From assembly GCA_016201795.1 (NCBI GenBank), contig JACQCF010000027.1, positions 45,454 to 109,453 of the forward strand: a stretch of DNA of 64,000 nucleotides. The letters run 5' to 3'. Shown here piece after piece: positions 2,395 to 25,519 of the stretch. The stretch is from Candidatus Omnitrophota bacterium (GTDB lineage Bacteria; Omnitrophota; Gorgyraeia; Zapsychrales; Fredricksoniimonadaceae). The notes beneath the pieces were generated by a model. The model did not search any database and was not told the origin of the DNA. It saw nothing but the letters and a program-made list of their open reading frames with translations. Position numbers and translations under genes: made by a program. The stretch's first letter is position 1. Every line of letters starts with the position of its first letter.

Positions 2395-4583
<2,189 letters not shown>

Positions 4584-4584
4584 T

Positions 4585-5286
4585 ATGCTTCGTTTCGATA
4601 TCATTACTTTATTTCCTAAAGTTTTCAACGGTATTTTCAACGAGTCCATGATCAAAAGGGCCAAGGAGAAGAAAAAAGTCCTTATTAAAATCCATGATTT
4701 GCGCGATTATTCTTCGGATAAGAAACGGCACAGCGTGGATGACAGGCCTTTTGGCGGAGGTCCGGGCATGGTATTAAGCCCGCAGCCTTTGTTTGATGCG
4801 GTCAAAAAAATTAAAGGCCGCAAAAAAGCCAAGGTCATTTACGTCACCCCTTCGGGAGTGCCGTTTTCACAATCTCATGCAAAACGCTTGACGAAGCATA
4901 AAAATTTGATTATTATCTGTGGCCATTACGAAGGTATCGACGAGAGGGTACGCGAACATATCGTTGATGAGGAGTTTTCCATTGGCGATTATGTTTTAAC
5001 CGGCGGCGAAATTCCCGCCATGGTCATGGTCGATGCCATTACTCGTTTAATCCCGGGTGTTTTAGGTAAAGACGAGTCGCTGGTGAATGAGAGTTTTGAA
5101 GCGGATTTATTAGAAGGTCCCCAGTACACCCGGCCGGCTGATTTTCATGGCCTGAAAGTACCACCAGTGTTATTATCGGGACATCATCAACAGATAGCAC
5201 AATGGCGTCGGGCCCAGGCAGTTCAACATACTCAAAAAATCAGGCCTGATTTAGCAGGGAAGTGGAGGCAGCATCGTGGTCAGTAA
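4585..5286 (+). CDS. trmD: tRNA (guanine37-N1)-methyltransferase
   Basis: [11 protein letters not shown]...[12 protein letters not shown]...[30 protein letters not shown] knot motifs. Confidence 0.9.
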
Positions 5287-5653
5287 TCTGGAAAAAATTA
5301 AAATTATCGATGAGAAACAGATCCGCAAGGATCTGCCTCATTTTGACGTCGGTGATACCATTAAAATGAGAATTAAAGTGAAGGAAGCTGAAAAGGTGCG
5401 TATCCACCCGTTTGAAGGCACGGTGATTAAAAAAACTGGCCATGGTTTAGGAAAGGCTTTTACCGTGCGCAAAGTTTCCTTCGGCGAAGGAGTGGAAAGA
5501 ACTTTCCCGGTTCATTCGCCGGTGATTGAAAAAATTGAAGTGGTTGCCAAAGGGGTTGTCAAACGCGCCAAATTGTATTATTTGCGTGAACGTTTGGGCA
5601 AAAGTGCCCGCGTTAAGGTGGATCAAACACATTCGACTACGCTCAGTGTTTGA
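5276..5653 (+). CDS. rplS: 50S ribosomal protein L19 (GTG start overlapping trmD stop)
   Basis: [31 protein letters not shown]...[21 protein letters not shown] is canonical bL19. Conserved trmD-rplS synteny. Confidence 0.9.
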
Positions 5654-5710
5654 TCCTGAGTGTAATCGAAGGATCAAACCCAGGCTGCTTAAATTTAGTG
5701 CCGGCCATTT

Positions 5711-6355
5711 ATGGTTGAGCATCTCTTAAATTATGAAACGGAAGCCCAAAATCAAGGCTTCCGTTTTGTTTTAGGAGTAGATGAGGCCGGCCGCGGTCCT
5801 TTGGCCGGGCCGGTGGTAGCCGCGGCTGTATGTTTAAAAAGTTTTGATTTTACCTGCCGTATCGATGATTCCAAAAAAATGACGCCTGCTGCCCGCCAAA
5901 AAGCTTTTGATCAGATTTCTCAAAAGGCTTATGTGGGTCTGGGACTGATTTCTGAGACAGCCATTGATCAGGTTAATATTTTAAATGCTACTTTTTTAGC
6001 CATGGAAGCCGCTGTACGGCAGCTGGTGGACCAAATCCGCAAGGAGATCAGGTCAGAGGTTTTGACGGATCAGGTTAAGATTTTGGTTGACGGCAACAGG
6101 TTTAAAACCGATTTGCCTTATGCCTATCGAGGTATTATTGGTGGAGATACCAGTAGTTTATCCATTGCCTGCGCTTCGATTATAGCCAAAACGTATCGCG
6201 ATCGTATGATGGAGCATTATGACCGCATTTTTCCCCAATACGGGTTTAAAGCCCATAAAGGTTATCCCACTGCTTTGCATAAATTGGCCATTCTGCGATA
6301 CGGTCCCTCGATTATTCATCGTAAAACATTTCAAGGGGTTCTACCAGAAAGTTGA
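5711..6355 (+). CDS. rnhB: Ribonuclease HII
   Basis: VLGVDEAGRGPLAGPVVAAAV active-site motif. Length 214 aa. Confidence 0.9.
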   Translation: MVEHLLNYETEAQNQGFRFVLGVDEAGRGPLAGPVVAAAVCLKSFDFTCRIDDSKKMTPAARQKAFDQISQKAYVGLGLISETAIDQVNILNATFLAMEAAVRQLVDQIRKEIRSEVLTDQVKILVDGNRFKTDLPYAYRGIIGGDTSSLSIACASIIAKTYRDRMMEHYDRIFPQYGFKAHKGYPTALHKLAILRYGPSIIHRKTFQGVLPES

Positions 6356-6368
6356 TGAAATATCAATT

Positions 6369-6400
6369 GACAAGTTTCATGTCGTATTATATGATATTTC
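6369..6400 (+). promoter_or_regulatory. Candidate sigma70-like promoter (TTGACA...TATTAT/TATGAT) ahead of the pilin-tra-like operon
   Basis: ttgacaagtttcatgtcgtattatatgat in the 128-nt AT-rich gap after rnhB. Also a small ATTGAT-TATAA-ATCAAT palindrome at ~6401-6417. Confidence 0.3.
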
Positions 6401-6483
6401 TAAAATTGATTATAAATCAATAATTCCGGTTCCCCCATCGGAAAAACAGCAGTAAAAAATTTCCCCCAAATAGTAATTTTTTT

Positions 6484-7368
6484 ATGTCCAACAACCTGCG
6501 CTCCTACAAACAGGGATTCTCTTTAATTGAGCTTTCCATTGCTATGGCCATTATTGCCATACTGGCTTCTTCTATTGTTCCCATAGCCATTCGTTCCCTA
6601 CAAATTAGAGCAGGGGAAAAGACCGCTTTAGAAATGGCCATGATTCAAGAAGCTAGCCGTAATTATTACATTGATCATAAAGCTTGGCCCGCAGATATTC
6701 CTACTCTTCAAGCCCAAGGTTATTTGAATCCAAATTGGACGGCATTGAACCCTTGGCATAATGCTTATCAAATCTCCAGCACCAATTTGGCTTTAACCGT
6801 AAGTACCGATGTGCCGGCTCAATGGGCTAATTTGGTCGCCAGTCATTTACCGGCAGCGATAGTTAATAATGCCAATGTATCCAGTACACTTTCCTCACCA
6901 GGGGGATCTGGCTTGCAGCCAGGAGTGATTGTGGCATGGTCTGGATCCATTGCTAATATTCCAGCAGGCTGGGCTTTGTGCGACGGTACCAACGGCACGC
7001 CGGATTTGAGGGATAAATTTATTGTCGGTGTAAGGCAAGATGACGCGGGAATTTCCAAAAGTAATATTATGGGGACTTTATTGCAAACTGGTGGATCGAC
7101 AACGCACAATCATGGCGGACAAACAGGCAGTCATACCTTAACCATAGCGGAGATACCACCGCATGATCATGCTGAAAATTACTGGGTATCCATGGATTTA
7201 TCCAACAGTATAGGACTCTATGGCAATAGTCCTGGCGGACATGCTGGTATGTTTAACCCTAGACCAAGAACTGAAATGACCGGTGGCGGCCAAGGTCATA
7301 CTCATACAATTTCGAGTGACTACAATGTACCACCGTTTTACGCGCTGGCGTTTATTATGAAATTATGA
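6484..7368 (+). CDS. Type IV prepilin/pseudopilin N-terminus fused to a phage tail-collar (T4 gp12/MdpB-like) C-terminal domain
   Basis: KQG|FSLIELSIAMAIIAILA is a class-III prepilin peptidase site with Glu+5. Residues 40-70 (EASRNYYIDHKAWPADIPTLQAQGYL) are GspG/PilE-like. The C-terminus (IPAGWALCDGTNGTPDLRDKFIVG...GGSTTHNHGGQTGSHTLTIAEIPPHDH...GGGQGHTHT) matches the tail-collar family motif (P.GW..CDG......L..F..G) with His-rich repeats. Confidence 0.7.
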   Translation: MSNNLRSYKQGFSLIELSIAMAIIAILASSIVPIAIRSLQIRAGEKTALEMAMIQEASRNYYIDHKAWPADIPTLQAQGYLNPNWTALNPWHNAYQISSTNLALTVSTDVPAQWANLVASHLPAAIVNNANVSSTLSSPGGSGLQPGVIVAWSGSIANIPAGWALCDGTNGTPDLRDKFIVGVRQDDAGISKSNIMGTLLQTGGSTTHNHGGQTGSHTLTIAEIPPHDHAENYWVSMDLSNSIGLYGNSPGGHAGMFNPRPRTEMTGGGQGHTHTISSDYNVPPFYALAFIMKL

Positions 7369-8267
7369 GCATTCTTCTCTTATTATTTTTTATTCTCAGC
7401 AACAACGTATGGGCGCAGGAAAAAACTACCCACGTCACTAAGAGTATTTTGGAATTGTCAGCTATGGCGGACTTTAAGTGCGTTCAAGCTAAACCTGTGG
7501 GCGCATGTCCTAAACCGAATCGAGAGCCGCCCATTGGTGTTAAAATGCGTTTCTGGCAGCCGGAGCTTTTTATGGAAACGGTTAAGATGCCGGGGGATTA
7601 TGTCATTGCTGAATATGGAGCGACTCTGGGGTCTTTAGCTAAGACGACGATTAAAACCGAACTTGAGCTAGTCACCCACATTAGACCTTTAACAGTGACC
7701 AGCGGCAGTTCTTTTAATAGTTTAAGTAACAGTAATTTGCAATTCAATGAAGTGCACCTGTACGACTTTCCCTCGGATGATATTTTTGATGCGCTTTGTT
7801 CAGATACTCCTAATACAACTTTGGGTATTCGCTATTTTTCAGAAGTGGATAGTATTACCTGGCGACGAGGAGATATTGAAAAAGAGCTTCCACAAAGCCT
7901 GGTTGCCGAAAATATAGGCGCACAATGTAATTATTTGGTGCTAGGAGCTACGGCGGGCCAGTGTATGAAAAGCTGGGGGCCGCTTTATCCTCGTCAGGGC
8001 TTTGTCATTACTCCCAGCGGACTGGTGAGCTCTATTGTTGATGCTTTGCGGGCCGTGAGTATTGCCTCAAATCCTTTCCCCCATTTAGTAGAGGCTCCAC
8101 TGAGCTTTCAGCCCAATATCCCTATTGATAAAGTGCAAATGGTTTATCCTGTTAAAACATCCTGCTTTCCTATAGGTCAAAACCCATCCCAGTGGGAGGC
8201 TGATAAACAATCCAAGGACGGTCATTATGTATGGATTTTCTGGCATCGACGGGAGTGCTGTATTTAG
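7365..8267 (+). CDS. TraU-like periplasmic protein (F-type T4SS pilus-assembly family), secreted
   Basis: Signal peptide ...NNVWA|QE. ACPKPNREPPIGVKMRFWQPE...MPGDYV resembles the TraU CP.PPP..R.IGL...YWEP..L...PGC block as recalled from F-plasmid TraU. Also EVHLYDFP (F-plasmid TraU has HVHWYKYP) and C-terminal QMVYPVKTSCFPIGQNP (TraU has MVNMYPDSGQCHPFG). ATGA overlap with the upstream pilin gene. Confidence 0.5.
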   Translation: MSILLLLFFILSNNVWAQEKTTHVTKSILELSAMADFKCVQAKPVGACPKPNREPPIGVKMRFWQPELFMETVKMPGDYVIAEYGATLGSLAKTTIKTELELVTHIRPLTVTSGSSFNSLSNSNLQFNEVHLYDFPSDDIFDALCSDTPNTTLGIRYFSEVDSITWRRGDIEKELPQSLVAENIGAQCNYLVLGATAGQCMKSWGPLYPRQGFVITPSGLVSSIVDALRAVSIASNPFPHLVEAPLSFQPNIPIDKVQMVYPVKTSCFPIGQNPSQWEADKQSKDGHYVWIFWHRRECCI

Positions 8268-8601
8268 AAGGCGGGTCTTAACCACCTTGTTTCTTTTGAT
8301 GACAGCCAATCTCTACGCGGCCAATCCTTATCATCTAGGCCAGGTGGATTATTTTCATGATAGACCCATCACTAAAGATACGGAAGATCAAAATCAGTCT
8401 TTTGACTGGCGCGAACCAACAGTTGCTTCCGATGGTCATATAGCGTCTTACACTCCACCGGGGCCGATGCTGACGTTATTGGAAAACCCCACGCCCGAGA
8501 ATGCCAAAGTCTATCTTGCCTGGCAGAAACAAAAGGTACAGAAAATCTTCAAGGCCCAAGAACTGATCGATCAAGTGCTCAAAGAAGGAAAGCCGCTGTG
8601 A
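8227..8601 (+). CDS. Short secreted protein resembling the TraF/TrbB N-terminal region (no thioredoxin domain)
   Basis: RRR plus hydrophobic signal peptide. LENPTPENAKVYLAWQKQKVQKIFKAQELIDQVL fits the TraF N-terminal P..N...Y..LQ......F..A pattern. 124 aa. Its 5' end overlaps the TraU-like gene by 41 nt and its stop overlaps the next start (GTGA). Confidence 0.3.
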   Translation: MYGFSGIDGSAVFRRRVLTTLFLLMTANLYAANPYHLGQVDYFHDRPITKDTEDQNQSFDWREPTVASDGHIASYTPPGPMLTLLENPTPENAKVYLAWQKQKVQKIFKAQELIDQVLKEGKPL

Positions 8602-12631: not shown

Positions 12632-14320
12632 ATGAACAAACGTTGGATTATCAAAGCCTCTGACCCCCGGCTTCAAAAAGAACTCAGCGACGCTTTAGGC
12701 ATTCATCCGATCCTCGCCCAGCTTCTGATTAATCGCCAGATCACCACCATTGAGGGGGCCCGCCGTTTTTTAACCGCCGATTTATCCATGCTGCATAATC
12801 CGTTTCTTTTGACCGATATGGATAAAGCGGTTGAGCGTATTCAAAGAGCTCAAAGTAATAACGAAAAAATTCTTATCTATGGCGATTACGATGTGGATGG
12901 GGTCACTTCCAGCGCTTTGCTTCGACGTTTGCTTAAACGTCTGGGTATCACGGCGGTCAATTATATTCCGCATCGCATGGAAGAGGGTTATGGCCTTAAT
13001 TGTGGTATTGTAGAATTCGCTAAGAGCTTGAACGTTCATTTGATTATCACTGTGGATTGCGGCATCAATGCCTTTGGCCCTATTGAGGCCATTCATCGCG
13101 CGGGTATGGATGTGATTATTATTGACCATCACGAACCCGACGCAGAGAAAATTCCTCAAGCCCTGGCGGTCATTGACCCCAAACGTTCAGATTGTCTGTA
13201 TCCGTTTAAAAATTTATCCGCGGTGGGGCTGGTGGCGAAATTAGCCCAGGCTTTGTTGGGTTTTGTCCCGGAAGAGGATTTGGATTTGGTGGCTATTGGT
13301 ACGGTGGCTGATGTGGTGGCACTTCGTTGTGAGAATCGTATTTTTGTCAAAAAGGGATTGCCTTTGATCGAGCGAAGTCAGAAACACGGCTTGCAGGCGC
13401 TGTTGGAGGTAGCTAAAATCGCTGGCAAAAAAATGAAACCCTATTATATCGGTTTTATTTTGGGCCCCCGGCTTAATGCGGCCGGCCGCATGGATTCAGC
13501 AACGGTCGCGTTGGATCTTTTATTATCCGAAGATCCCATGCAAGCGGCGGTTTTGGCTAAAAGCCTGGAAGAGCATAATCAAAGCCGTCAGAAAATGCAA
13601 AACGCGGTTGTTGAGGAAGCGCTAAGCATTATTGAAAACCAGGAAGGTTTAAAGGATCAGCAGATTATTGTGGTGCACAAAGAAGGATGGCATAAAGGGG
13701 TTTTAGGGATTGTGGCTTCACGTATTGTGGAAAAATATTATCGACCCACCATTGTGATTTCCATCGAGGATGGGATGGGCACAGGCTCGGCGCGTTCCAT
13801 TGAAGGCTTTCATTTGCATGAAGCGCTCACCAGCTGCGCCGGGTCGCTGGAGAATTACGGCGGGCATCAAAGGGCCGCGGGTCTACGTTTGCGTCAGGAG
13901 AATATCGACCAATTTCGTCAGGCCATCAATGACTTTGCCCGCGAAGTGTTTAAGGATCAGGAATTGGTACCGACGCTGAATATTGATTGCGAAATTCCGC
14001 TTTCAAGCGTTGATTTGCCGATGGTGGAACTCATTGAATCCATGGAGCCGCATGGCGAAGGTAACCCGGTGCCGATTTTTTGCTCCCGGCGTTTGACGGT
14101 CAAAAGTTCCCCGGTGGTGTTAGGCCGTGATACGCTGAAATTCTGGATCAGCGATGGCGGCAAAACTTATTCCGCTGTTGGTTTTGGCATGGGGACGATG
14201 AAAGACAAAGTTAAAATGGGAAGCCAGCTGGATTTAGCCTACAGTTTGGGTATTGATGATTGGAACAAAGCGCCTCTGGTGCAGTTGATCATAAAAGATA
14301 TCAGAACGGTTAATGGTTAA
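12632..14320 (+). CDS. recJ: Single-stranded-DNA-specific exonuclease RecJ
   Basis: DHH motifs ILIYGDYDVDGVTS, IITVDCG and IIIDHHEP, plus a DHHA1 region with GGHQRAAGL. Confidence 0.85.
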   Translation: MNKRWIIKASDPRLQKELSDALGIHPILAQLLINRQITTIEGARRFLTADLSMLHNPFLLTDMDKAVERIQRAQSNNEKILIYGDYDVDGVTSSALLRRLLKRLGITAVNYIPHRMEEGYGLNCGIVEFAKSLNVHLIITVDCGINAFGPIEAIHRAGMDVIIIDHHEPDAEKIPQALAVIDPKRSDCLYPFKNLSAVGLVAKLAQALLGFVPEEDLDLVAIGTVADVVALRCENRIFVKKGLPLIERSQKHGLQALLEVAKIAGKKMKPYYIGFILGPRLNAAGRMDSATVALDLLLSEDPMQAAVLAKSLEEHNQSRQKMQNAVVEEALSIIENQEGLKDQQIIVVHKEGWHKGVLGIVASRIVEKYYRPTIVISIEDGMGTGSARSIEGFHLHEALTSCAGSLENYGGHQRAAGLRLRQENIDQFRQAINDFAREVFKDQELVPTLNIDCEIPLSSVDLPMVELIESMEPHGEGNPVPIFCSRRLTVKSSPVVLGRDTLKFWISDGGKTYSAVGFGMGTMKDKVKMGSQLDLAYSLGIDDWNKAPLVQLIIKDIRTVNG

Positions 14321-14350
14321 TAGTACATTTAACTTTTCACCATTGACTGA

Positions 14351-14578
14351 TTATGCCGCGCGAATAATTTTATTGGCTTGAATGCAGCTGGTGCACACCA
14401 GAGCTCTTTGGACGGTTCCGTGCAGAATAATTTTAATGCGCTGCAAATTCGGCTTCATCACACGGAGGGTTTTACCGACGATTTTGGAACCGGCACCGCC
14501 TTTTTTCTTTGCCATACCGCGTCTTTTATATTTCCTGCCTGGTGCTGCAGATTTGGCGCAAATGATACAATCTCTCAT
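14351..14578 (-). CDS. rpmB: 50S ribosomal protein L28, zinc-ribbon (C+) form
   Basis: MRDCIICAKS...KPNLQRIKIILHGTVQRALVCTSCIQANKIIRAA has the CxxC...CxxC pairs and the PNLQ motif of bL28. GAGGT SD 8 nt upstream of this ATG. The track ORF (to 14695) is a spurious 5' extension. Confidence 0.7.
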   Translation of the reverse strand: MRDCIICAKSAAPGRKYKRRGMAKKKGGAGSKIVGKTLRVMKPNLQRIKIILHGTVQRALVCTSCIQANKIIRAA

Positions 14579-14682
14579 GAAAATGACCTCAAATAGGATG
14601 GTGCAATGAAGATTGCTAACGACTGATTGGTCAAATATACTGGAAATTATATGCTTGTCAAGGGATTTTAGGAAAGGAAACC

Positions 14683-16401
14683 ATGGATTTAGCACAATTG
14701 CCCGCTTATCAACAACGTACCTTTGTGCCTGAGGCAGCGGACTTAACAGATGTCAAGATCGTCAAGGACCTCTATCAAAAATTACTGGATCGGCCCATCT
14801 ATTCCTCTCAAGAGTTGCAAGAGTGGCTTTTGGAGCGCTCGGAATTGGATGCTGCCTTAAATCAAACCGCCTCCATTTTGTATATCCACATGACCTGCCA
14901 TACGGATGACCCTCAAAGCGCAGGGCCCTATACCCAATTTATTCAAACCGTGCCGCCGGCGGTTAAACCTCTTAATGATGAGCTTAATCGTAAATATCTT
15001 AAAATCCTTAAATCTTATCCTTTGGATGCCAGCCGCTATCAGGTGTATAACCGTGCCACGGCCACAGATGTAGACTTGTTCATTGAGGCTAATGTGCCTT
15101 TGCAAACCAAGGTGGATTTATTGTCGCAGGAATATCAAACCGTTTGCGGGGCCATGACGGTTGATTTCGACGGCAAAGAGCAGACCATGCCGCAAATAGC
15201 TAAATATCTGCTGGAGCCTGCCCGCCAAAAACGTGAAGATGCCTGGCGCGCCATGACCAAGCGGCGCATGGCCGATAAAGACAGACTCGAGCATATTTTT
15301 GATGAGATGTTTAAAGACCGCTGTCAGATCGCGGCCAATGCGAGAATGAACAATTTTATTGAGTATCAATTCCGCGCCTATCATCGTTTTGACTATACTC
15401 CATCGGACTGCAAAAAATATCATGAAACAGTTGAGAAACTGGTGGTGCCGCTCTACAGTGAAATTTTAAAGAAACGCCGGCAAGAGATGAAATTAAAGAG
15501 CCTAAGGCCGTGGGACATGGCGGTGGACCCGCAGGGCCGCAAACCTTTGAAACCTTTTGAGAAAGTTTCTGATCTAACGGTCAAGACACAGAAGATTTTT
15601 AATGATCTCGATAATGAACTTGGTAGCCAGTTTCAGCAGATGAAGAATTTGGGGCTTTTGGATTTGGAAAGTCACAAAGGCAAAGCTCCTGGGGGCTATC
15701 AAAATACTCTCAGTGAGGCGCGCAGACCTTTTATTTTTATGAACGCCGTCGGGGTGGATGATGATGTGCGCACATTGCTGCACGAGGGGGGTCACGCGTT
15801 TCACGCGCTGGCTTGTGCCCAGGATCCCTTGCTGGATTATCGCCATGCGCCGATGGAATTTTGTGAATTGGCCTCCATGGCCATGGAGCTTTTAGGCGGC
15901 CAGTACATGGACGAGTTTTATACGCTCGAGGATACCAAACGCTCTAACCGTGAGCATTTGGAGAGCATGGTGCATATTTTAGTGTGGGCGGCTAACATCG
16001 ACGCGTTTCAGCACTGGCTGTATGAGCATCCGAATCATTCGCCGCATGAGCGCCGTCAGGCGTGGGTTAGTTTTTACCAGCAATTCGGCGGCAAATTTCT
16101 GGATTGGCAGGACCTTAAAGAAGAGCAGGCGTATCTATGGCATCGCCAGTTGCATATTTTTGAAGTACCCCTTTACTATATCGAATACGGTATTGCCCAA
16201 CTGGGAGCTTTGCAATTGTGGCTCAAGGCCAAGAAAGATCCTAAGAAAGCTTTGGCGGATTATCGTCATAGCCTTTCCCTGGGCGGTTCCCGGCCCCTGC
16301 CTGAGCTCTACGAGGCTGCTGGCATTAAATTTGATTTTTCGCAAGAGCTCATCAAACCTTTGGTTGACGAAGTTTATAAAGAGTGGTCAAAATTATGGTG
16401 A
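14683..16401 (+). CDS. pepF: Oligoendopeptidase F (M3B family)
   Basis: HEGGHAFH zinc motif, 572 aa, M3B architecture. Confidence 0.85.
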   Translation: MDLAQLPAYQQRTFVPEAADLTDVKIVKDLYQKLLDRPIYSSQELQEWLLERSELDAALNQTASILYIHMTCHTDDPQSAGPYTQFIQTVPPAVKPLNDELNRKYLKILKSYPLDASRYQVYNRATATDVDLFIEANVPLQTKVDLLSQEYQTVCGAMTVDFDGKEQTMPQIAKYLLEPARQKREDAWRAMTKRRMADKDRLEHIFDEMFKDRCQIAANARMNNFIEYQFRAYHRFDYTPSDCKKYHETVEKLVVPLYSEILKKRRQEMKLKSLRPWDMAVDPQGRKPLKPFEKVSDLTVKTQKIFNDLDNELGSQFQQMKNLGLLDLESHKGKAPGGYQNTLSEARRPFIFMNAVGVDDDVRTLLHEGGHAFHALACAQDPLLDYRHAPMEFCELASMAMELLGGQYMDEFYTLEDTKRSNREHLESMVHILVWAANIDAFQHWLYEHPNHSPHERRQAWVSFYQQFGGKFLDWQDLKEEQAYLWHRQLHIFEVPLYYIEYGIAQLGALQLWLKAKKDPKKALADYRHSLSLGGSRPLPELYEAAGIKFDFSQELIKPLVDEVYKEWSKLW

Positions 16402-16438
16402 GTGAGTGTAACGAGTCGAACTTGACCTTCCCCCAACA

Positions 16439-16855
16439 ATGTTAAGAAAAACACATATTACTTTCAAAATCCTCCTGTTTTTGATCTCTATAGATTTACT
16501 GGAAACCTTTGTTCAATTTTGTTTTAAAAAAACCGCTTTGGCTAACAGTAGCTTTGAAGTTAAAACTTTGGAAGGTATTACTCATTTCATCACGGGAGTC
16601 GCTATCTCTCCTTTTTTATGGCTGGCTTTAGCGTCTGTGTTATTGATATTTATTATCTGGTCAACCATACTCTCCAAAATTGATTTAAGCGTCGCTGTTG
16701 CTGTTAACAGTTTTAGTTTTATAACCATTCCGTTGGTATCCGTGGTTTTTTTGCATGAAAGAATTTCTCTTTTAAGGTGGCTGGGGATATTCATCATTTT
16801 AATAGGGGTGGTTCTAGTATCGCTTAGCAGCAAGCCCAAGGAATATCAGCCATGA
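16439..16855 (+). CDS. Half-size (4-TM) EamA/DMT-superfamily membrane protein, ArnE/ArnF-like
   Basis: 138 aa, four hydrophobic helices, EamA-like topology. ATGA overlap with its paralogue downstream. Confidence 0.55.
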   Translation: MLRKTHITFKILLFLISIDLLETFVQFCFKKTALANSSFEVKTLEGITHFITGVAISPFLWLALASVLLIFIIWSTILSKIDLSVAVAVNSFSFITIPLVSVVFLHERISLLRWLGIFIILIGVVLVSLSSKPKEYQP

Positions 16856-17232
16856 AATCACAGCTGGTCCTTATAATATTTTGGATATTCGCATCCGACG
16901 TTTGTGATACTATTTGCCAATTATTGTTAAAATTTTGTATTAATTCTCTGGGATGGCACATCGATAGTATTAAAAAAGCCTTACAACTGACTTTTGAGTT
17001 AGCTAAAATTCCAGTGGCCTGGCTGGGGCTTATGTTCAGTATTTTTTCTTTGTTTATTTGGTTATTTGTTCTGACCCGATCAGATTTAAACTTTGCTTTC
17101 TCTGCTGATAGCATGCGTTATATTTTAATCGCCGTAGCTTCAACGGCCGTATTAAAAGAGAAAATCGGTTTTATGCGCTGGGCAGGAATAGGGACGGTGG
17201 TGTGTGGAATAACACTGGTGGCCTTGGGGTAG
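16852..17232 (+). CDS. Second half-size EamA/DMT protein (probable heterodimer partner)
   Basis: 126 aa, 4 TM. Paired small DMT subunits as in the ArnE/ArnF flippase. Confidence 0.55.
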   Translation: MKSQLVLIIFWIFASDVCDTICQLLLKFCINSLGWHIDSIKKALQLTFELAKIPVAWLGLMFSIFSLFIWLFVLTRSDLNFAFSADSMRYILIAVASTAVLKEKIGFMRWAGIGTVVCGITLVALG

Positions 17233-17245
17233 GCCTGAGGGCTCA

Positions 17246-18388
17246 ATGATGGGATCTCGTTTAAAAGTTAAAATTGTCAAAAAAATTGAGGATGTTTCTG
17301 CGCAAGAGTGGAAGAGCGTCTTTCCCGATGTATTGGAGAATTATTATTTTTTTAAAACTCTCAATGAGTCTAACTTCCGGCAGTTTATATTCTTTTATAT
17401 TTTAGTTTATGACCAGGATATTCTCATCGGGGCCACCAGCTGTTTTATAATGGATTTTCCTTTGGACATTGCCGTCAGCGGGATCTTAAAGAAATTGACG
17501 GGTTTTATTAAAAGTTTTGTGCCGCGGCTTTTGAGCCCCAGGATTCTTATTTGCGGCCTGCCGATGGGGCAGGGAAGGATAGGAATAAAGGCCCAGTCGT
17601 GTAAAGTCATGCAAGCCATCACGCAAGCCATGGACGAAATCGCTCATCAGCAGAAAGTCGGCATTATCGCATTTAAAGATTTTATTTCCGATTACAAAGA
17701 AGCGTTTGATCCTTTGCTTGAGCAAGGTTTTTTCAGAATAGATTCCCTGCCATCTACGTATATGGACATTACTTTTGCCAGTTTTGATGAGTATTTAAAA
17801 TCATTAAGCAGTGTATCTAGAAGCGGTTTGAAAAGAAAATTTAAGGAAATAGACGGTAAAATCAATATTGATTTGGAAGTCACCAGTCAATTAAAGAACA
17901 ATGACTTGCAGGAGGTTTATGCCCTTTATTTGCAGACCTATGCGCGCAGTGAAATTAGCTTGGAAAAACTCACTCCTGATTTTTTTCAAAAAATATCGGA
18001 AAATATGCCCCATGAGGTTAAATTTTTCCTTTGGCGGATTAATCATAAGATAGTGGCATTTGCTTTATGCATGGTGTCCAGAGATTATTTTATTGATTAT
18101 TATCTGGGGTTTGATTATGGGGTGGCTTATCAGTACCATCTTTATTATGTCAGATTCAGGGATCTGATGAAATGGTGTATTGAGAATAATATGAAGAAAT
18201 ATGAAATGGGCCCCACGGCCTATGAGCCTAAAAGAAGGCTAAATTTTAGTTTTATTCCATTACATATTTATGCCAGACATCGGAATAAATTTTTTAACCC
18301 CATTTTTAGAATTTTCTGCCATATAGTAAAGCCGTCTAATTTTGATCCGGTATTTGTCAAAGTTCGTCCTAAAGTTTGTAGTTTATAG
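17246..18388 (+). CDS. GNAT-fold FemAB-like / PF04339 (BioF2-like) family acyltransferase
   Basis: ~380 aa with C-terminal ...YYLGFDYG...YEMGPTAYEPKRRLNFSFIPLHIYARH, resembling the conserved E.G...HK...GF.P.....H tail of PF04339 proteins. Confidence 0.5.
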   Translation: MMGSRLKVKIVKKIEDVSAQEWKSVFPDVLENYYFFKTLNESNFRQFIFFYILVYDQDILIGATSCFIMDFPLDIAVSGILKKLTGFIKSFVPRLLSPRILICGLPMGQGRIGIKAQSCKVMQAITQAMDEIAHQQKVGIIAFKDFISDYKEAFDPLLEQGFFRIDSLPSTYMDITFASFDEYLKSLSSVSRSGLKRKFKEIDGKINIDLEVTSQLKNNDLQEVYALYLQTYARSEISLEKLTPDFFQKISENMPHEVKFFLWRINHKIVAFALCMVSRDYFIDYYLGFDYGVAYQYHLYYVRFRDLMKWCIENNMKKYEMGPTAYEPKRRLNFSFIPLHIYARHRNKFFNPIFRIFCHIVKPSNFDPVFVKVRPKVCSL

Positions 18389-18398
18389 CTAAAGAGAC

Positions 18399-18944
18399 AT
18401 GCGTAAACTAACCCACGAAGAAATCGTCCATCGTCAAACGGCCAAAGTAAACCAGGTGCGATTGCCGTTTTGCGTGGTGCTCAACAATATCCGCAGTTTG
18501 CATAATGTGGGCTCCATTTTCCGCACGGCCGATGGTGTTGGTGTTGAGAAGATTTGGCTGTGCGGCATCACCGGCTATCCGCCGCAGGGCGGCATTGCCA
18601 AAACCGCTTTAGGCGCCGAAGATCATGTACCTTGGGGCTACCGTCAGGACGGCTTAGGTCTTTTGAAGGAGCTTAAGGCTAAAGACTATCAAATCGTGCT
18701 TCTGGAGCAAATGCAAGGGGCTGTGAGTTACGATGAATTTATCCTCAAGCCGCCGGTATGTTTGGTGATCGGCAATGAGATTTCCGGTGTTTCTGATGCC
18801 TGGCTTGAGCTTTGTGATGCGGCTGTTGACATCGACATGGCCGGCATCAAAAATTCCCTCAATGTGTCCGTAGCTTTCGGTGTGATGGCCTATCAAATCC
18901 GCTCCTGCCTTAAACCTCTTGCGCAAAAACCATTGCGACGTTAG
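18399..18944 (+). CDS. TrmH/SpoU family RNA 2'-O-methyltransferase
   Basis: NVGSIFRTADGVGVEKIWLCGITGYP and VIGNEISGVS...SLNVSVAFGV SPOUT motifs. Confidence 0.75.
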   Translation: MRKLTHEEIVHRQTAKVNQVRLPFCVVLNNIRSLHNVGSIFRTADGVGVEKIWLCGITGYPPQGGIAKTALGAEDHVPWGYRQDGLGLLKELKAKDYQIVLLEQMQGAVSYDEFILKPPVCLVIGNEISGVSDAWLELCDAAVDIDMAGIKNSLNVSVAFGVMAYQIRSCLKPLAQKPLRR

Positions 18945-18954
18945 AATAATTTCC

Positions 18955-19176
18955 ATGAATATCGATGCCAAGAAACTTTTACGCAATAAGAAAGTCATCG
19001 CGGAAATCAACCGGCATAAATGGCTGGAAAGCGAAATTGCCGGCTACGATATCGGTTTTGAAGCCGCGGCTGAGAGTTGGCTTAAAAACCACGCTGTCGC
19101 CTGGGTGGCTTACCATATGAAAAACTCCTCCACAACATCCGCCGCAAGCGCCTCTAAAAAGAAAAAACGGTCTTAA
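18955..19176 (+). CDS. Hypothetical small protein with Ser/Lys-rich tail
   Basis: ORF with ATG at 18955. Track start 18919 would overlap the trmH-like gene. No recognisable domain. Confidence 0.3.
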   Translation: MNIDAKKLLRNKKVIAEINRHKWLESEIAGYDIGFEAAAESWLKNHAVAWVAYHMKNSSTTSAASASKKKKRS

Positions 19177-19181
19177 AAACC

Positions 19182-19925
19182 ATGAAGATATTGTTCTATC
19201 GGGGAATTTTAACAGCGCTGTTAGTGAGTGCGTTTGCATGGAGTGTTTGGGCCCAGGATAAAATGAATTTGCCATCGCCGTCAGGTTATGTCAATGACTT
19301 TGCCGGTATGATGGAGCCCGTGGATCAGCAGGCCATTAATGCTTTGTTGACGGCGTTAGAATCAAAAACCACCACCCAGGTGGCCGTGGTCATCGTCGTA
19401 ACCACCCAACCTGACACAATCGAACAATACGCGGTCAAGCTCTTTCAAAAATGGGGCATCGGACAAAAAGGTAAAGATAACGGCGTTTTGTTTTTAATCG
19501 CGGTGCGTGACCACACTTTACGAATTGAAGTCGGCTATGGTTTAGAGGGTGTTTTAACGGATGCGATTAGTTCTCAGGTTATTAGTCAGATTGTCGTACC
19601 TGAATTTAAGCACGAGCGGATGTCCTATGGTATTTTGCAGGGTACCAGAGCCATTGTCAGTTTGATTGCCAAAGAGTATGGGGTGACTGTCACGGGTCAG
19701 GAAGCGGCGATTTACAACAGTCTTCATAGCGACACCTCAGGACTTTGGATTATTGTTTTTGTGTTTATCCTTATTTTTATGTTTTATGCTTTTTCGTTTA
19801 GCCGTCGTGGTGTAGGCTGGTATGGTTATTATGGTGGGGGCGGCGGTTTCTCAGGCGGTTCCGGAGGGTTTGGCGGTTTCGGTGGAGGTATGAGCGGCGG
19901 CGGGGGAGCGAGTGGAAGTTGGTAA
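19182..19925 (+). CDS. TPM-domain (TLP18.3/Psb32/YgcG-like) protein with C-terminal TM and Gly-rich tail
   Basis: Signal peptide, then GYVNDFAGMMEP...LESKTTTQVAVVIV...GIGQKGKDNGVLFLIAVRDHTLRIEVGYGLEG is the TPM phosphatase-domain signature. Followed by a TM helix and a GGGGFSGGSGGFGG tail. Confidence 0.75.
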   Translation: MKILFYRGILTALLVSAFAWSVWAQDKMNLPSPSGYVNDFAGMMEPVDQQAINALLTALESKTTTQVAVVIVVTTQPDTIEQYAVKLFQKWGIGQKGKDNGVLFLIAVRDHTLRIEVGYGLEGVLTDAISSQVISQIVVPEFKHERMSYGILQGTRAIVSLIAKEYGVTVTGQEAAIYNSLHSDTSGLWIIVFVFILIFMFYAFSFSRRGVGWYGYYGGGGGFSGGSGGFGGFGGGMSGGGGASGSW

Positions 19926-19987
19926 GTTTTAAGGTAGTCCCTCGCTTATGCAATAAAGCTCAAAGAGCTCGGGATTAATTCGCACTT

Positions 19988-20019
19988 ATAACTTATGTCG
20001 CTATTACTCCATAAGTTAT
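19988..20019. promoter_or_regulatory. 10-bp inverted repeat ATAACTTATG-N12-CATAAGTTAT upstream of lemA
   Basis: Perfect 10-nt arms read directly. Centred ~35 nt upstream of the lemA ATG, overlapping the likely promoter. Confidence 0.3.
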
Positions 20020-20040
20020 GTGCTCATTAAGGAGACTCAT

Positions 20041-20607
20041 ATGAAAAACATATGGATTGCTTTAGGAGTTATTGTAGTTTTAGGCTTTGTTGGTTTTAGT
20101 TGGTACCAGGGCGGTTTCAATCAGATGATTGCCTTAGACCAGGGGGTTAAATCCAGCTGGGCTCAGGTGGAAAATCAATTGCAGCGGCGTTTTGACCTTA
20201 TCCCTAATTTGGTGAATACCGTCAAGGGTTATGCTGCTCATGAAAAAAGTATTTTGGAAGAGGTGACCCGTTTAAGAAGCCAGTGGGCTCAGGCCGCGTC
20301 GGTACCTGATAAGGTGGCCGCGGCCAACTCTTTAAGCGGGGCGCTCTCGAGGCTTTTGTTGGTTAGTGAAAATTATCCGAATTTGAAAGCAGATCAAACT
20401 TTCCTGACTTTACAAAGCCAGCTGGAGGGAACGGAGAATCGTATTGCGGTTGAGCGCATGCGTTACAACCAGGCCGTCGAAGCATTCAATTCCTATCAGC
20501 GTTCATTTTTTGGGCGGTATTTTGCCAGTCAGACCGGTTTAAGCGAACCAGCGGTTTATTTTAAAGCGGAAGAAACAGCAAAACAGGTCCCAAAAGTACA
20601 ATTTTAA
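20041..20607 (+). CDS. lemA: LemA family membrane protein
   Basis: N-terminal TM, then NQMIALDQGVKSSWAQVENQLQRRFDLIPNLVNTVKGYAAHEKSIL is the LemA signature. AAGGAG SD 7 nt upstream. The track start at 20020 is a GTG extension. Confidence 0.8.
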   Translation: MKNIWIALGVIVVLGFVGFSWYQGGFNQMIALDQGVKSSWAQVENQLQRRFDLIPNLVNTVKGYAAHEKSILEEVTRLRSQWAQAASVPDKVAAANSLSGALSRLLLVSENYPNLKADQTFLTLQSQLEGTENRIAVERMRYNQAVEAFNSYQRSFFGRYFASQTGLSEPAVYFKAEETAKQVPKVQF

Positions 20608-23088: not shown

Positions 23089-23945
23089 TGACCTATTCAC
23101 CTATAGTGTGGATTGCTTTTAACGCGGGAGTAGTGGCTCTTTTATGCTTGGATGCTTTGGTTTTAAACCCCAAAGGCCGTGAAATTACTTTGCGCCGTGC
23201 CCTGGCCACGACAGCCTTTTGGCTTTTGCTGGCTTTATTATTTAATTTAGGGATTTATTTTTGGCTGGGCGATCAAAGAGCTTTGGAATTTTTAACCGCC
23301 TATATGGTAGAGCAGTCTTTAAGTATCGATAACCTTTTTGTGTTCCTGTTGATTTTTGCTTATTTTAAAATATCACCTGCGGATCAGCACCGGGTGTTGT
23401 TGTGGGGGGTCATCAGCGCCCAGATCATGCGGGCGGTTTTTATTATTGGCGGGATAGCCCTGTTGAGTCATTTCCACTGGATGATCTATGTCTTCGGCGT
23501 TATTTTGCTCATCACAGGTCTGAAATTATTTTTTAAGAAAGACCAACGGGTGCATCCCGAACGTAATCCCATCCTTCAAATCATCGGTAAAAATTTACCC
23601 ATCTTTCTGGTTGTGCTGATTGTGATTGAGACCACGGATTTGATTTTTGCCATTGATTCCATCCCCGCGGTTTTAGCCATCACTAAGAATGTTTTCATCG
23701 CGTATTCCTCAAATATCTTTGCGATTTTGGGTTTGCGGGCCATGTATTTTGTGCTGGCTTCTTTTATGAAAATATTCCATTATTTGCATTACGGGCTAGG
23801 GGTGATACTAGTTGCCGTGGGTCTTAAAATGCTTACCGAGCATCTCTGGCCTGTTCCGGTGGTGCTTACCCTTAGCTTTATTCTCTTGACGTTAACCGTG
23901 ACGGTAGTTTTTTCCATCCTATGCCCGCCCAAGGCACAAAAATAA
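23085..23945 (+). CDS. TerC/Alx family integral membrane protein
   Basis: EQSLSIDNLFVFLLIF and AIDSIPAVLAIT...FAILGLRAMYF TerC motifs. Multi-TM. Confidence 0.8.
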   Translation: MMTYSPIVWIAFNAGVVALLCLDALVLNPKGREITLRRALATTAFWLLLALLFNLGIYFWLGDQRALEFLTAYMVEQSLSIDNLFVFLLIFAYFKISPADQHRVLLWGVISAQIMRAVFIIGGIALLSHFHWMIYVFGVILLITGLKLFFKKDQRVHPERNPILQIIGKNLPIFLVVLIVIETTDLIFAIDSIPAVLAITKNVFIAYSSNIFAILGLRAMYFVLASFMKIFHYLHYGLGVILVAVGLKMLTEHLWPVPVVLTLSFILLTLTVTVVFSILCPPKAQK

Positions 23946-25519
23946 TTCAGCCATGGTGGTGGTTTTTAGGTCTTATGGCTGTTGGAGTGGCGATTTTTTT
24001 TCGTTTTTGGCATATCATGGATAACCAATTCCTATTTTATGATGAAGGGATGTACTTAGGGTACAACCGAAGTTTTTTAAATTTAGTTGCGGCTAATCCT
24101 CCCCAAGACCTGCACGATTTATTCATTATTTTAGGATTGATGTTGAAAATTGCTTTAACCACCGCCAAAGCGTTATGGTTTTTTCTGTTGAACTTAAGGG
24201 TTTTTATCACAGGAGCGCAAGGGTGGTATTTTGCCCGTGTGATTTCAGCCATGGCAGGCATAGCCACCATTGTGGTAACGTATCTTTTTGCTCATCGGTA
24301 TTTTCAATCTAAAAAGATCGCGGTTTTAAGCGCGGTATTTTTAAGTCTTTTGCCCAGCCATGTGTTTTATTCCAGGCTTGGCATGCAGGAGTCTTTGAGT
24401 ACTTTATTGTTCCTGACAGCTCTTTATCTCTATTGGTTTGATGGGTCCATAAGTTGGCGCACGATCGTTTCTGCCCTTTTATTGTCCGGTGTATTTTTGA
24501 CTAATTACCGTATGATTATTGCTCCCATTTTTATCGTTGCTATTGAGACTTTTGAGGCCTTTAAAAATTATGGCTCTATTCATTGGAAAAAATTGATAGT
24601 GTACATAGCTGTTTTTTGTACCACCACCTTTTGGATAGGTTCTTTATACGGCGGTGTTAATCGTTATGTAACTATTAACTGGATGTTTCATCAGGCTCAG
24701 CAGGCCAAGATAGGGTGGAGTTTACTCAATTTGTTTTCCTATCCCTATGAGGTGTTTGCTCTGGAAAGCCTTTTGTTTGGTTTGATATTTTGGGCTAATA
24801 TGTATTTGATTATTCAAAGACAATGGCTCAGACTTTTGCCTTTTGTTCTAGTACTTCTTCAAATGGGGATGTTTTCTTTAGCCGCCGAGCAAGGAGCGAG
24901 GTATCTGTGCGTGGTCTTGCCTTTGATGGCGATCGCCGCGGCCGTAAGTGCGGATTATTTTTTAGGATTGTCCCGAAAGTGGTTTTATGCTCTGGTCGTC
25001 ACCATCGTCTTATCGTGTGGGATGATGGGTATACAGTCTTTGAACATTGTTTTTTCCCGTACGGATTATGCGGAGGCTGTCCATCTTATTTTAAGGCATG
25101 ATCCCAAAGCCAAAATGCTCTCGACCCAGCCTTTGGTTGAGCAGCTTTATGTGGAAAATGAGAATCTCATCAAAGATTGTCCGCATCATCTGCAGGATTT
25201 GATTAACCTTTACAGTCAAGATTATGATTATTTGATTTTAGATCCGCAAGCATATATTTCCTGGACCAAAGATACAGATCATTTCAGTCCACCTTTAATT
25301 GATTTTTTAGAATTTATTCATGCCCAGGTGCCGCCCGTGGCTGTCTTGGAGCATCTCAATGGTGTTCTGTTAAAACGTTTTGTTTGGGATCACAACCGGA
25401 ATTTTGTACAATCGATTAAATTTTTAAATTTAGCTCCACAGGCCGGCTACGGTCAGATTCGAATTTATGATATTGGCCAGTCTTTAATGATGCTTAAAAA
25501 ATATAAAATCTTACGATAA
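23921..25519 (+). CDS. GT-C fold membrane glycosyltransferase (ArnT/PMT, GT39/GT83-like)
   Basis: 532 aa. ~11 N-terminal TM helices with a periplasmic C-terminal domain. FYDEGMYLGY in the first loop is reminiscent of the ArnT/PMT catalytic loop. Confidence 0.55.
   Translation: MPAQGTKIIQPWWWFLGLMAVGVAIFFRFWHIMDNQFLFYDEGMYLGYNRSFLNLVAANPPQDLHDLFIILGLMLKIALTTAKALWFFLLNLRVFITGAQGWYFARVISAMAGIATIVVTYLFAHRYFQSKKIAVLSAVFLSLLPSHVFYSRLGMQESLSTLLFLTALYLYWFDGSISWRTIVSALLLSGVFLTNYRMIIAPIFIVAIETFEAFKNYGSIHWKKLIVYIAVFCTTTFWIGSLYGGVNRYVTINWMFHQAQQAKIGWSLLNLFSYPYEVFALESLLFGLIFWANMYLIIQRQWLRLLPFVLVLLQMGMFSLAAEQGARYLCVVLPLMAIAAAVSADYFLGLSRKWFYALVVTIVLSCGMMGIQSLNIVFSRTDYAEAVHLILRHDPKAKMLSTQPLVEQLYVENENLIKDCPHHLQDLINLYSQDYDYLILDPQAYISWTKDTDHFSPPLIDFLEFIHAQVPPVAVLEHLNGVLLKRFVWDHNRNFVQSIKFLNLAPQAGYGQIRIYDIGQSLMMLKKYKILR

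Follow-up and report, generated by a model that had tools for sequence, protein, structure and literature searches.

A conserved trio of two half-size EamA transporters and a FemAB-like transferase in Candidatus Omnitrophota, and its possible role in the synthesis and translocation of an amino-lipid

The trio and its products

The subject of this analysis is a group of three co-directional genes on the plus strand of a 64 kb stretch of DNA from a Candidatus Omnitrophota bacterium (GenBank assembly GCA_016201795.1, contig JACQCF010000027.1), hereafter the window, which specify two half-size transporters of the EamA type, DMT_A and DMT_B, and a transferase, FEM. DMT_A (16439-16855, plus strand) encodes an ArnE/ArnF-like protein of 138 amino acids (aa) with four transmembrane (TM) helices and a predicted topology in which both termini are cytoplasmic (N-in/C-in), while DMT_B (16852-17232, plus strand) encodes a 4-TM paralogue of 126 aa for which the opposite topology is predicted (N-out/C-out). 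The two open reading frames (ORFs) overlap by 4 nucleotides (nt), and a gap of 13 nt separates DMT_B from FEM (17246-18388, plus strand), the product of which is a soluble tandem-GNAT transferase of 380 aa, assigned to PF04339 FemAB_like and PF13480 and representing a divergent COG3146-type protein. An original prediction, made from the sequence of this stretch, had described two overlapping 4-TM EamA-like genes followed by a gene for a 380 aa protein, and the positions of these genes were found to be correct. Homologues of the trio number in the hundreds in Candidatus Omnitrophota assemblies, at approximately 50-90% identity, and the genes are therefore taken to be real.

In Pfam, FEM matches PF04339 with 73.6 bits (cut-off 27) over residues 111-325 and PF13480 with 49.9 bits (cut-off 22). 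An AlphaFold2 model of FEM, built with 25 homologues, reached a pLDDT of 89.4 and a pTM of 0.87, and comparison of this model with the PDB by Foldseek returned FemX of Weissella viridescens as the best match (E 1e-13, TM-score 0.55), followed by the aminoacyl-tRNA-dependent peptide synthases Sbb17 and Sba18 and the synthase domain of MprF, and then by acetyl-CoA-dependent tandem GNATs. The earlier assignment of FEM as a FemAB-like protein with a GNAT fold, belonging to an uncharacterised family, is upheld by the Pfam score and by this FemX-like model. The resemblance is one of fold, as the matches to FemX, Sbb17 and Sba18 (E 1e-13 to 1e-10, TM-score approximately 0.55) share just 10-14% identity with FEM. 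Sequence searches of the PDB, either with the single protein or with a profile of 25 sequences, gave chance matches only, the FemX equivalog of NCBIfam scored 21.8 bits against a cut-off of 500, and the Pfam scan of FEM reported neither a FemAB-family nor a DUF2156 match. Within Omnitrophota the mean column identity of the FEM family is 64%, and two residues, G104 and K329, are invariant even in relatives at approximately 25% identity; K329 may correspond to the catalytic lysine of FemX. The GF.P...H tail that had been named as typical of PF04339 is approximately right as a description of the family, for which the C-terminal consensus is LGFxFIPLYxYxKH; in the window protein this G is an N, and the motif falls outside the Pfam match, which stops at residue 325. 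No function is known for COG3146, the equivalent of the PF04339 family; a hypothesis that linked it to pterins was tested and invalidated (PMC3223725).

The two half-transporters are related to each other and, more distantly, to ArnE and ArnF. DMT_A matches Pfam EamA with 34.1 bits, above the cut-off of 28.2, and DMT_B with 23 bits, below it; the DMT_A and DMT_B families are paralogous (hhalign probability 99.9%, identity 25%). In NCBIfam the best matches of both window proteins are ArnE and ArnF at 29.7-39.2 bits (for DMT_B, 39 bits with ArnF and 30 bits with ArnE), and the same two models are the best match for 25 of 25 orthologues of DMT_A and 25 of 25 of DMT_B. Alignment of profiles by hhalign gave probabilities of 97.6% (DMT_A) and 96.9% (DMT_B) with E. 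coli ArnE and approximately 92% with ArnF, as compared to approximately 32% with EmrE (33% for DMT_A), where the alignment is partial and confined to TM3-4, so that the acidic residue of TM1 cannot be aligned. No match of the window half-transporters to PF00893, the small multidrug resistance (SMR) family, was found in the Pfam scan; a fused relative, P0347, has a weak PF00893 match, and only a minority of orthologues match SMR-type models, with weak scores for MdtI/MdtJ and EbrA/B, and also the 2A78 carboxylate/amino acid/amine transporter model. The resemblance to ArnE/ArnF that had been proposed for this pair is thus well founded, and as judged from these family comparisons the label 'ArnE/ArnF-like' is fair, whereas 'ArnE/ArnF' itself is not.

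Among DMT_A orthologues Q26, K30, W61 and W74 are invariant and D19 and E107 nearly so. D19, which lies in TM1, aligns to a serine in ArnE, and DMT_B carries an acid, D16, at equal spacing before a conserved glutamine. The distribution of lysine and arginine differs between the two subunits: an excess in the N-terminus, loop 2 and C-terminus, indicative of N-in, was found in 89% of 62 DMT_A orthologues, and an excess in loops 1 and 3, indicative of N-out, in 100% of 60 DMT_B orthologues. This opposite bias implies that the pair forms an antiparallel heterodimer.

Linkage, fusions and accessory genes

Conservation of the trio was assessed in a sample of 80 loci drawn from assemblies representing one genome per species (GTDB), each locus containing a FEM relative at 42-68% identity. 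By tblastn, the DMT pair directly adjoins FEM in 62 of these 80 loci, lying upstream as in the window in 25, downstream in 35 and in convergent orientation in 2, the gaps between the pair and FEM mostly ranging from -6 to 50 nt. In the FEM tree the two gene orders, upstream and downstream, coincide with a split into two deep clades, from which it follows that the linkage outlived rearrangement. Clustering of neighbouring ORFs in the 80 loci revealed no further gene conserved in more than 18 of them. On the grounds of conserved adjacency and of the natural fusions described below, the trio is, as read from its genomic arrangement, one functional unit. The proposal that the three genes belong together is in this way supported by the co-occurrence check that had been suggested for it; the DMT pair is conserved beside FEM in relatives, and no unrelated, well-characterised family was matched by the 380 aa protein.

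When 1.84 billion cluster representatives (clusters at 50% identity) were searched with a FEM profile in order to collect the wider family, 4088 relatives were retrieved, of which 541 had E <= 1e-30, and the top 150 of these 4088 representatives were surveyed for fusions. Eight proteins (P0242, P0246, P0280, P0293, P0306, P0325, P0347 and P0349) carry a half-size EamA domain C-terminal to FEM. In one of them, P0306 from the gammaproteobacterium Rudaea sp., this C-terminal domain likewise matches ArnE/ArnF; in the Rudaea lineage the FEM-EamA fusion of approximately 513 aa occurs in dozens of independent clusters beside unfused forms of 377 aa. That these fusions are genuine is established by the Pfam domain matches together with the many independent clusters of the Rudaea lineage, and the automatic label given to them by the Joint Genome Institute reads 'predicted N-acyltransferase/multidrug transporter EmrE-like cation transporter'. 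As judged from their domain content, the FEM-EamA fusions show that FEM acts physically beside a DMT half, and since FEM is attached N-terminally to that half, the N-terminus of the latter must be cytoplasmic (N-in).

Further fusions were present among the same 150 representatives. P0358 joins an alpha/beta hydrolase (Hydrolase_4) to FEM, and P0294 combines a PilZ domain, an SPT/BioF/Kbl-like alpha-oxoamine synthase and FEM, its synthase domain scoring 425 bits against the serine palmitoyltransferase (SPT) model. P0449 (577 aa) has, besides FEM, a weak precomputed match to PP-binding, the acyl carrier protein (ACP) domain, and is considered an apparent ACP fusion; FEM-PilZ and FEM-DUF4118 proteins were also found. 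A PilZ domain, which binds cyclic di-GMP, was observed in the FEM relatives P0361, P0372, P0350 and P0294, and this domain architecture suggests second-messenger control of the enzyme family in one lineage. A 496 aa FEM ORF in the locus L044, considered as another fusion, was rejected as an over-extension upstream from a TTG codon.

The genes that accompany the trio outside the window are informative as to its chemistry. On Rudaea/Rhodanobacteraceae contigs the order is a 305 aa protein of no recognised family, EamA, Hydrolase_4, FEM (or FEM-EamA), EamA, ACP and ketoacyl synthase (KAS), and farther along the cluster there are a PhzF-like gene and genes for a class-III aminotransferase (Aminotran_3), a HAD phosphatase and a fatty-acid desaturase. 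A corresponding operon in the Omnitrophota locus L055, comprising KAS, ACP, Hydrolase_4, a PF06888/HAD-IB phosphatase and Aminotran_3, faces FEM-EamA-EamA in convergent orientation; between Omnitrophota and Rudaea the KAS proteins share approximately 42% identity and the hydrolases approximately 39%. Approximately 20 of the 80 loci carry some or all of these accessory genes, and three arrangements of them are seen. The DMT pair of L015 continues, on one strand, a run of hydrolase, HAD and aminotransferase genes, and that of L076 follows on from the KAS gene in like manner. A third FEM lineage was recovered from metagenomes by a scan with a narrow alignment that returned 7 loci: here FEM follows, or is fused to, an alpha-oxoamine synthase, which itself follows a FadL/TodX outer-membrane channel, and in one locus a PlsC-type acyltransferase lies directly upstream. 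No arn-type gene (ArnB, C, A, D or T), no peptidoglycan gene (mur, mra or fts) and no tRNA-related gene was present among the recurrent neighbour clusters scanned in the 80 loci, and the Rudaea contexts were likewise found to lack arn-type genes.

As predicted from their families, these partners would fall into three groups, the first concerned with building or handling acyl chains (KAS, ACP, desaturase and PlsC-like acyltransferase), the second with installing an amine (class-III aminotransferase or alpha-oxoamine synthase), and the third with moving hydrophobic molecules (the DMT pair, FadL and an AsmA-like protein). The accessory set therefore points to what is probably a combination of acyl-chain and amine chemistry, unlike that of an Arn-type sugar modification or of a peptidoglycan bridge. 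The Hydrolase_4 protein could be a thioesterase or a lipase; a role as a deprotecting S33-type peptidase is also conceivable, presumably as in macrolactam pathways. The protein that opens the Rudaea-type cluster upstream of the first EamA gene (304-305 aa; L087:7735-8652 and L085:7778-8692) has no Pfam match, and no homologue of it was found in the Omnitrophota loci.

Other genes neighbour the trio in particular genomes. In the window itself a gene for an M3 oligoendopeptidase (14683-16401) lies upstream, and genes for a SpoU methyltransferase, a TPM-domain protein and a LemA protein lie 3' of the trio. The DNA of the trio is also present on two short public contigs. The M3 peptidase and the SpoU methylase were considered as partners, being co-directional and close, yet they are kept only in same-genome copies and were judged unrelated. 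A scan of 14300-20100 for promoters and terminators gave counts near the shuffled expectation and was uninformative. In three loci (L035, L046 and L053) a gene for an AsmA/DUF748/YhdP-like protein of 805-816 aa comes right after the DMT pair (L046:6669-9095, 8 nt after DMT_B), and in five (L036, L039, L044, L050 and L051) the gene after the pair belongs to the Omp85 family; AsmA-like and Omp85 proteins alike are associated with outer-membrane biogenesis or lipid transport. Upstream of FEM and on the opposite strand, the loci L055, L057, L063, L068, L070, L072, L079 and L082, all of one clade, contain a 729 aa gene product matching NCBIfam MFS_SpdSyn, a fused membrane and spermidine-synthase-like protein (L082:1308-3497, minus strand), the gene for which is preceded by one that reads as XseA-like and by a 141 aa gene with no family match. 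This neighbour may reflect simple synteny or a polyamine link.

Some Omnitrophota metagenome-assembled genomes (MAGs) harbour two FEM paralogues, of which only one is accompanied by the DMT pair (L035 as against L037, and L046 as against L061), and the pair-less copies L037 and L061 group together in the tree. In a further pair-less subclade (L011, L020 and L028; positions approximately 3600-8300) FEM is flanked by two genes that read as response regulators, with a histidine-kinase-like gene upstream, and a radical-SAM/HHH protein is encoded downstream of FEM in L011 and L020 only. FEM genes from records titled as uncultured Planctomycetales/Planctomycetia or Deltaproteobacteria (L012, L025 and L030 among several) nest inside Omnitrophota clades, the titles being probably a matter of loose taxonomic labelling of MAGs.

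A possible synthase-translocator and the alternatives to it

We propose, with a probability of roughly 0.5, that the trio forms the conserved centre of a gene cluster shared between phyla, by which a lipid-like amphiphile containing an amine is synthesised and carried across the cytoplasmic membrane. According to this proposal a dedicated KAS and ACP, together with the class-III aminotransferase, the HAD phosphatase and the alpha/beta hydrolase where these are present, would build an amine bearing an acyl chain in the cytoplasm, the amine-forming role being filled in another lineage by the alpha-oxoamine synthase. FEM, as a soluble cytoplasmic enzyme at the inner face of the membrane, would then join an amide (or ester) bond onto this amine, and the antiparallel heterodimer of DMT_A (N-in) and DMT_B (N-out) would take the product directly from FEM and flip or export it. 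For the donor we lean towards acyl-ACP or acyl-CoA over aminoacyl-tRNA, at odds of about three to two; an acyl-carrier donor is favoured because of the adjacency of ACP, the apparent ACP fusion and the SPT-like fusion, and an aminoacyl-tRNA donor because of the ranking of the fold matches of FEM. The linkage, the fusions, the fold, the family similarities and the opposite charge bias of the subunits are observations, from which the lipid nature of the product, its flipping or export and the donor are inferred. We also put forward, as a more tentative and distinctly less probable statement, that the trio may be the synthase-translocator core of a new amino-lipid pathway, leading for example to an N-acylated or N-aminoacylated beta-amino fatty acid or long-chain amine, that such a pathway would be widespread in Omnitrophota and present also in Rhodanobacteraceae, and that its transferase, docked on or fused to an ArnE/F-like heterodimer, would constitute an analogue of MprF assembled from unrelated parts and provide the first function for a COG3146/PF04339-like protein.

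Several observations weigh against the proposal of a lipid-like, translocated product. The case for it is built wholly from gene context, fusions and a predicted fold, and in the FEM model the closest structural matches are aminoacyl-tRNA-dependent enzymes, which conflicts with the preference for an acyl-ACP donor. The 64 kb window contains no homologue of the KAS, ACP, hydrolase, HAD or aminotransferase genes, only the trio. The scheme assigns no specific role to the HAD phosphatase. Both half-transporters widely miss the ArnE/ArnF equivalog cut-offs (NF011625, 92 bits; NF002816, 99 bits), and the conserved TM1 acids in both halves could instead serve proton-coupled cation export; the DMT superfamily includes numerous exporters of soluble metabolites. 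Finally, 18 of the 80 loci have no adjacent DMT pair, of which 4 have short flanks and some represent second copies within one MAG.

Of the competing explanations, one retains a lipid as the product. In a split MprF- or Arn-like system FEM would aminoacylate an existing lipid, be it a phospholipid, lipid II or a polyprenyl-phosphate sugar, from aminoacyl-tRNA, and the pair would flip the cationic product to the outer leaflet, thereby remodelling the envelope. The order of the fold matches, headed by FemX, the peptide synthases and the MprF synthase domain, would suit such an activity, as would the weak NCBIfam FemX match, and ArnE and ArnF are the nearest curated relatives of the pair. The FEM-EamA fusions mimic the synthase-flippase architecture of MprF, and the operonic alpha/beta hydrolase parallels AhyD, VirJ and PesT of aminoacyl-lipid systems (PMC6103681). 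A cationic head group would also be compatible with the carboxylates conserved in TM1. What we take to be the CoA-type P-loop motif was not seen in the alignment of the C-terminal GNAT half of FEM, which is counted on the same side. We nevertheless consider this explanation unlikely: FEM has no DUF2156 or FemAB match in Pfam, its neighbours include no Arn, peptidoglycan or tRNA-related genes, the putative GT-C gene discussed below is not conserved together with FEM, and KAS, ACP, aminotransferase, desaturase and alpha-oxoamine synthase imply a dedicated acceptor rather than modification of bulk lipid, the apparent ACP fusion suggesting carrier-protein chemistry besides.

The other explanation dispenses with the lipid. 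FEM would acylate or aminoacylate a soluble amine (polyamine-like, an amino alcohol or a signal precursor) supplied by the aminotransferase and the phosphatase, two enzymes that make up a typical route to soluble amines, and the pair would either work as a proton-coupled antiparallel exporter in the manner of the SMR family or import the substrate. Soluble metabolites are the cargo of many DMT/EamA and paired 4-TM transporters, some members of the families studied here have the weak MdtI/MdtJ, EbrA/B and 2A78 matches, and TM1 acids combined with opposite topology are also found in SMR pairs. The gene for the MFS/spermidine-synthase protein, which adjoins FEM, would fit as well, but it is limited to one clade of related genomes. 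Against a soluble product stands the partial hhalign match to EmrE at approximately 32% as opposed to 97% for ArnE, and KAS, ACP, desaturase, the FadL-type channel, the SPT-like synthase and the PlsC-type acyltransferase argue for long acyl chains; a fusion between an enzyme and half of a transporter is also easier to explain if the substrate resides in the membrane. This explanation is plausible in view of the TM1 acids, the SMR-like topology and the aminotransferase-phosphatase pair, but in our estimation no more probable than the preceding one. Far less probable still is that FEM is a FemX-type transferase adding side chains to the stem peptide of the peptidoglycan precursor, with the DMT pair unrelated to it or merely co-transcribed. 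FemX is its best structural match, the Pfam family is titled 'Peptidoglycan biosynthesis/recognition', and Omnitrophota encode complete peptidoglycan synthesis (bioRxiv 10.64898/2026.06.07.730766); yet no mur, mra or fts gene is linked to FEM in the 80 loci, the NCBIfam FemX score lies far below its cut-off, and the tight linkage and fusions to EamA, ACP, hydrolase and alpha-oxoamine synthase do not fit the synthesis of a cross-bridge.

With regard to the function that had originally been envisaged, namely a lipid-linked envelope modification coupled to flipping, a lipid-like product that is translocated stays the best reading, whereas the Arn-like part of the idea is weakened, as no partner of the arn, peptidoglycan or glycosyltransferase type came to light in the gene neighbourhoods. 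The fatty-acyl and amine chemistry to which the accessory genes point had not been anticipated. The suggestion of an undecaprenyl-phosphate sugar as the substrate gained no supporting evidence, and no Arn-type genes lie nearby. The gene at 23921-25519 (plus strand), which had been pointed out as that of an ArnT/PMT-like GT-C transferase 6 kb downstream, specifies a polytopic membrane protein of 532 aa with an 'FYDEG' motif after the first TM helix, and this (F)YDEG motif, which resembles that of GT-C enzymes, presumably offers a lead only. The protein had no match in Pfam (E up to 10), NCBIfam or the PDB, its single-sequence AlphaFold model was unusable (pLDDT 41), and in none of the 80 loci did tblastn reveal a homologue at a distance of 6 kb or less from FEM. 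Having no family match, usable model or conservation near FEM, it was dropped as a member of the system.

Proteins of the PF04339/COG3146 type are numerous, with 4088 clusters at 50% identity retrieved by the profile of the FEM subfamily alone, and have no known function; full-text literature searches returned no description of the trio as a module or of a function for the family of FEM, the automatic label on the fusions being the sole trace. The trio gives this family a testable context, in which it is paired with, and sometimes fused to, ArnE/F-like half-transporters and accompanied by fatty-acyl and amine enzymes, and as Rudaea has cultured relatives, gene knockouts combined with lipidomics are feasible. 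Should the product prove to be an envelope lipid, this would mean a new lipid class and a new synthase-flippase architecture, with implications for the cell envelope of Omnitrophota, a phylum, as yet uncultured, of ultra-small, host-dependent bacteria. The DMT pair may in addition point to candidate inner-membrane translocators for bacterial amino-lipids that have no known flippase, such as ceramides.

Relation to known systems

The closest counterpart of the pair is ArnE/ArnF, the undecaprenyl-phosphate-alpha-L-Ara4N flippase of E. coli and a member of the DMT superfamily. In both cases two adjacent, overlapping genes encode paralogous 4-TM proteins of approximately 110-140 aa, which are coupled genetically to a cytoplasmic enzyme modifying an amine-bearing amphiphile, although for the trio such an activity is a proposal. 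The two differ in that the DMT pair has no arnBCADT genes nearby and carries an aspartate in TM1 where ArnE has a serine, and in that its partner is a Fem-fold transferase, with accessory genes for fatty-acyl rather than sugar-nucleotide enzymes. The paired SMR transporters EbrAB and MdtIJ are likewise antiparallel heterodimers from adjacent small 4-TM genes with TM1 acids, an arrangement which the lysine and arginine bias suggests for the DMT pair, but their sequence similarity to it is weak and partial. FemX/FemABX enzymes and Sbb17/Sba18 share the tandem-GNAT fold with FEM, which differs from them in having no sequence-level PDB match and no peptidoglycan gene context.

The scheme proposed for the trio also resembles the bacterial ceramide pathway (Spt and bCerS of Caulobacter). 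There, a pyridoxal phosphate enzyme supplies a long-chain amine, a peripheral N-acyltransferase modifies it, and translocation of the product follows. This N-acyltransferase, the bacterial ceramide synthase, is cytoplasmic, associates peripherally with the membrane and works after Spt, and the flippase of that pathway is still unknown (PMC11087976). A relative of FEM is fused to, or located beside, an SPT/BioF-like alpha-oxoamine synthase; in contrast, neither the window nor the Omnitrophota loci contain spt or cerR, the amine-forming enzyme there being a class-III aminotransferase. In overall design the nearest parallel is MprF, the aminoacyl-phosphatidylglycerol synthase-flippase, in which a Fem-fold synthase is coupled to a flippase and accompanied by operonic hydrolases (PMC6103681). 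A tandem-GNAT synthase coupled to a lipid translocator would be common to MprF and to FEM with its putative translocator, a likeness at the level of fold only, since the synthase of MprF belongs to DUF2156 and FEM to PF04339/PF13480. The membrane domain of MprF has up to 14 TM helices as compared to the two 4-TM proteins of the DMT pair, and the FEM fusions have the reverse order, with the enzyme at the N-terminus. The coupling of a synthase to a flippase is a known principle; the present combination of families, their natural fusions and the accessory set that recurs across phyla are undescribed in the literature searched.

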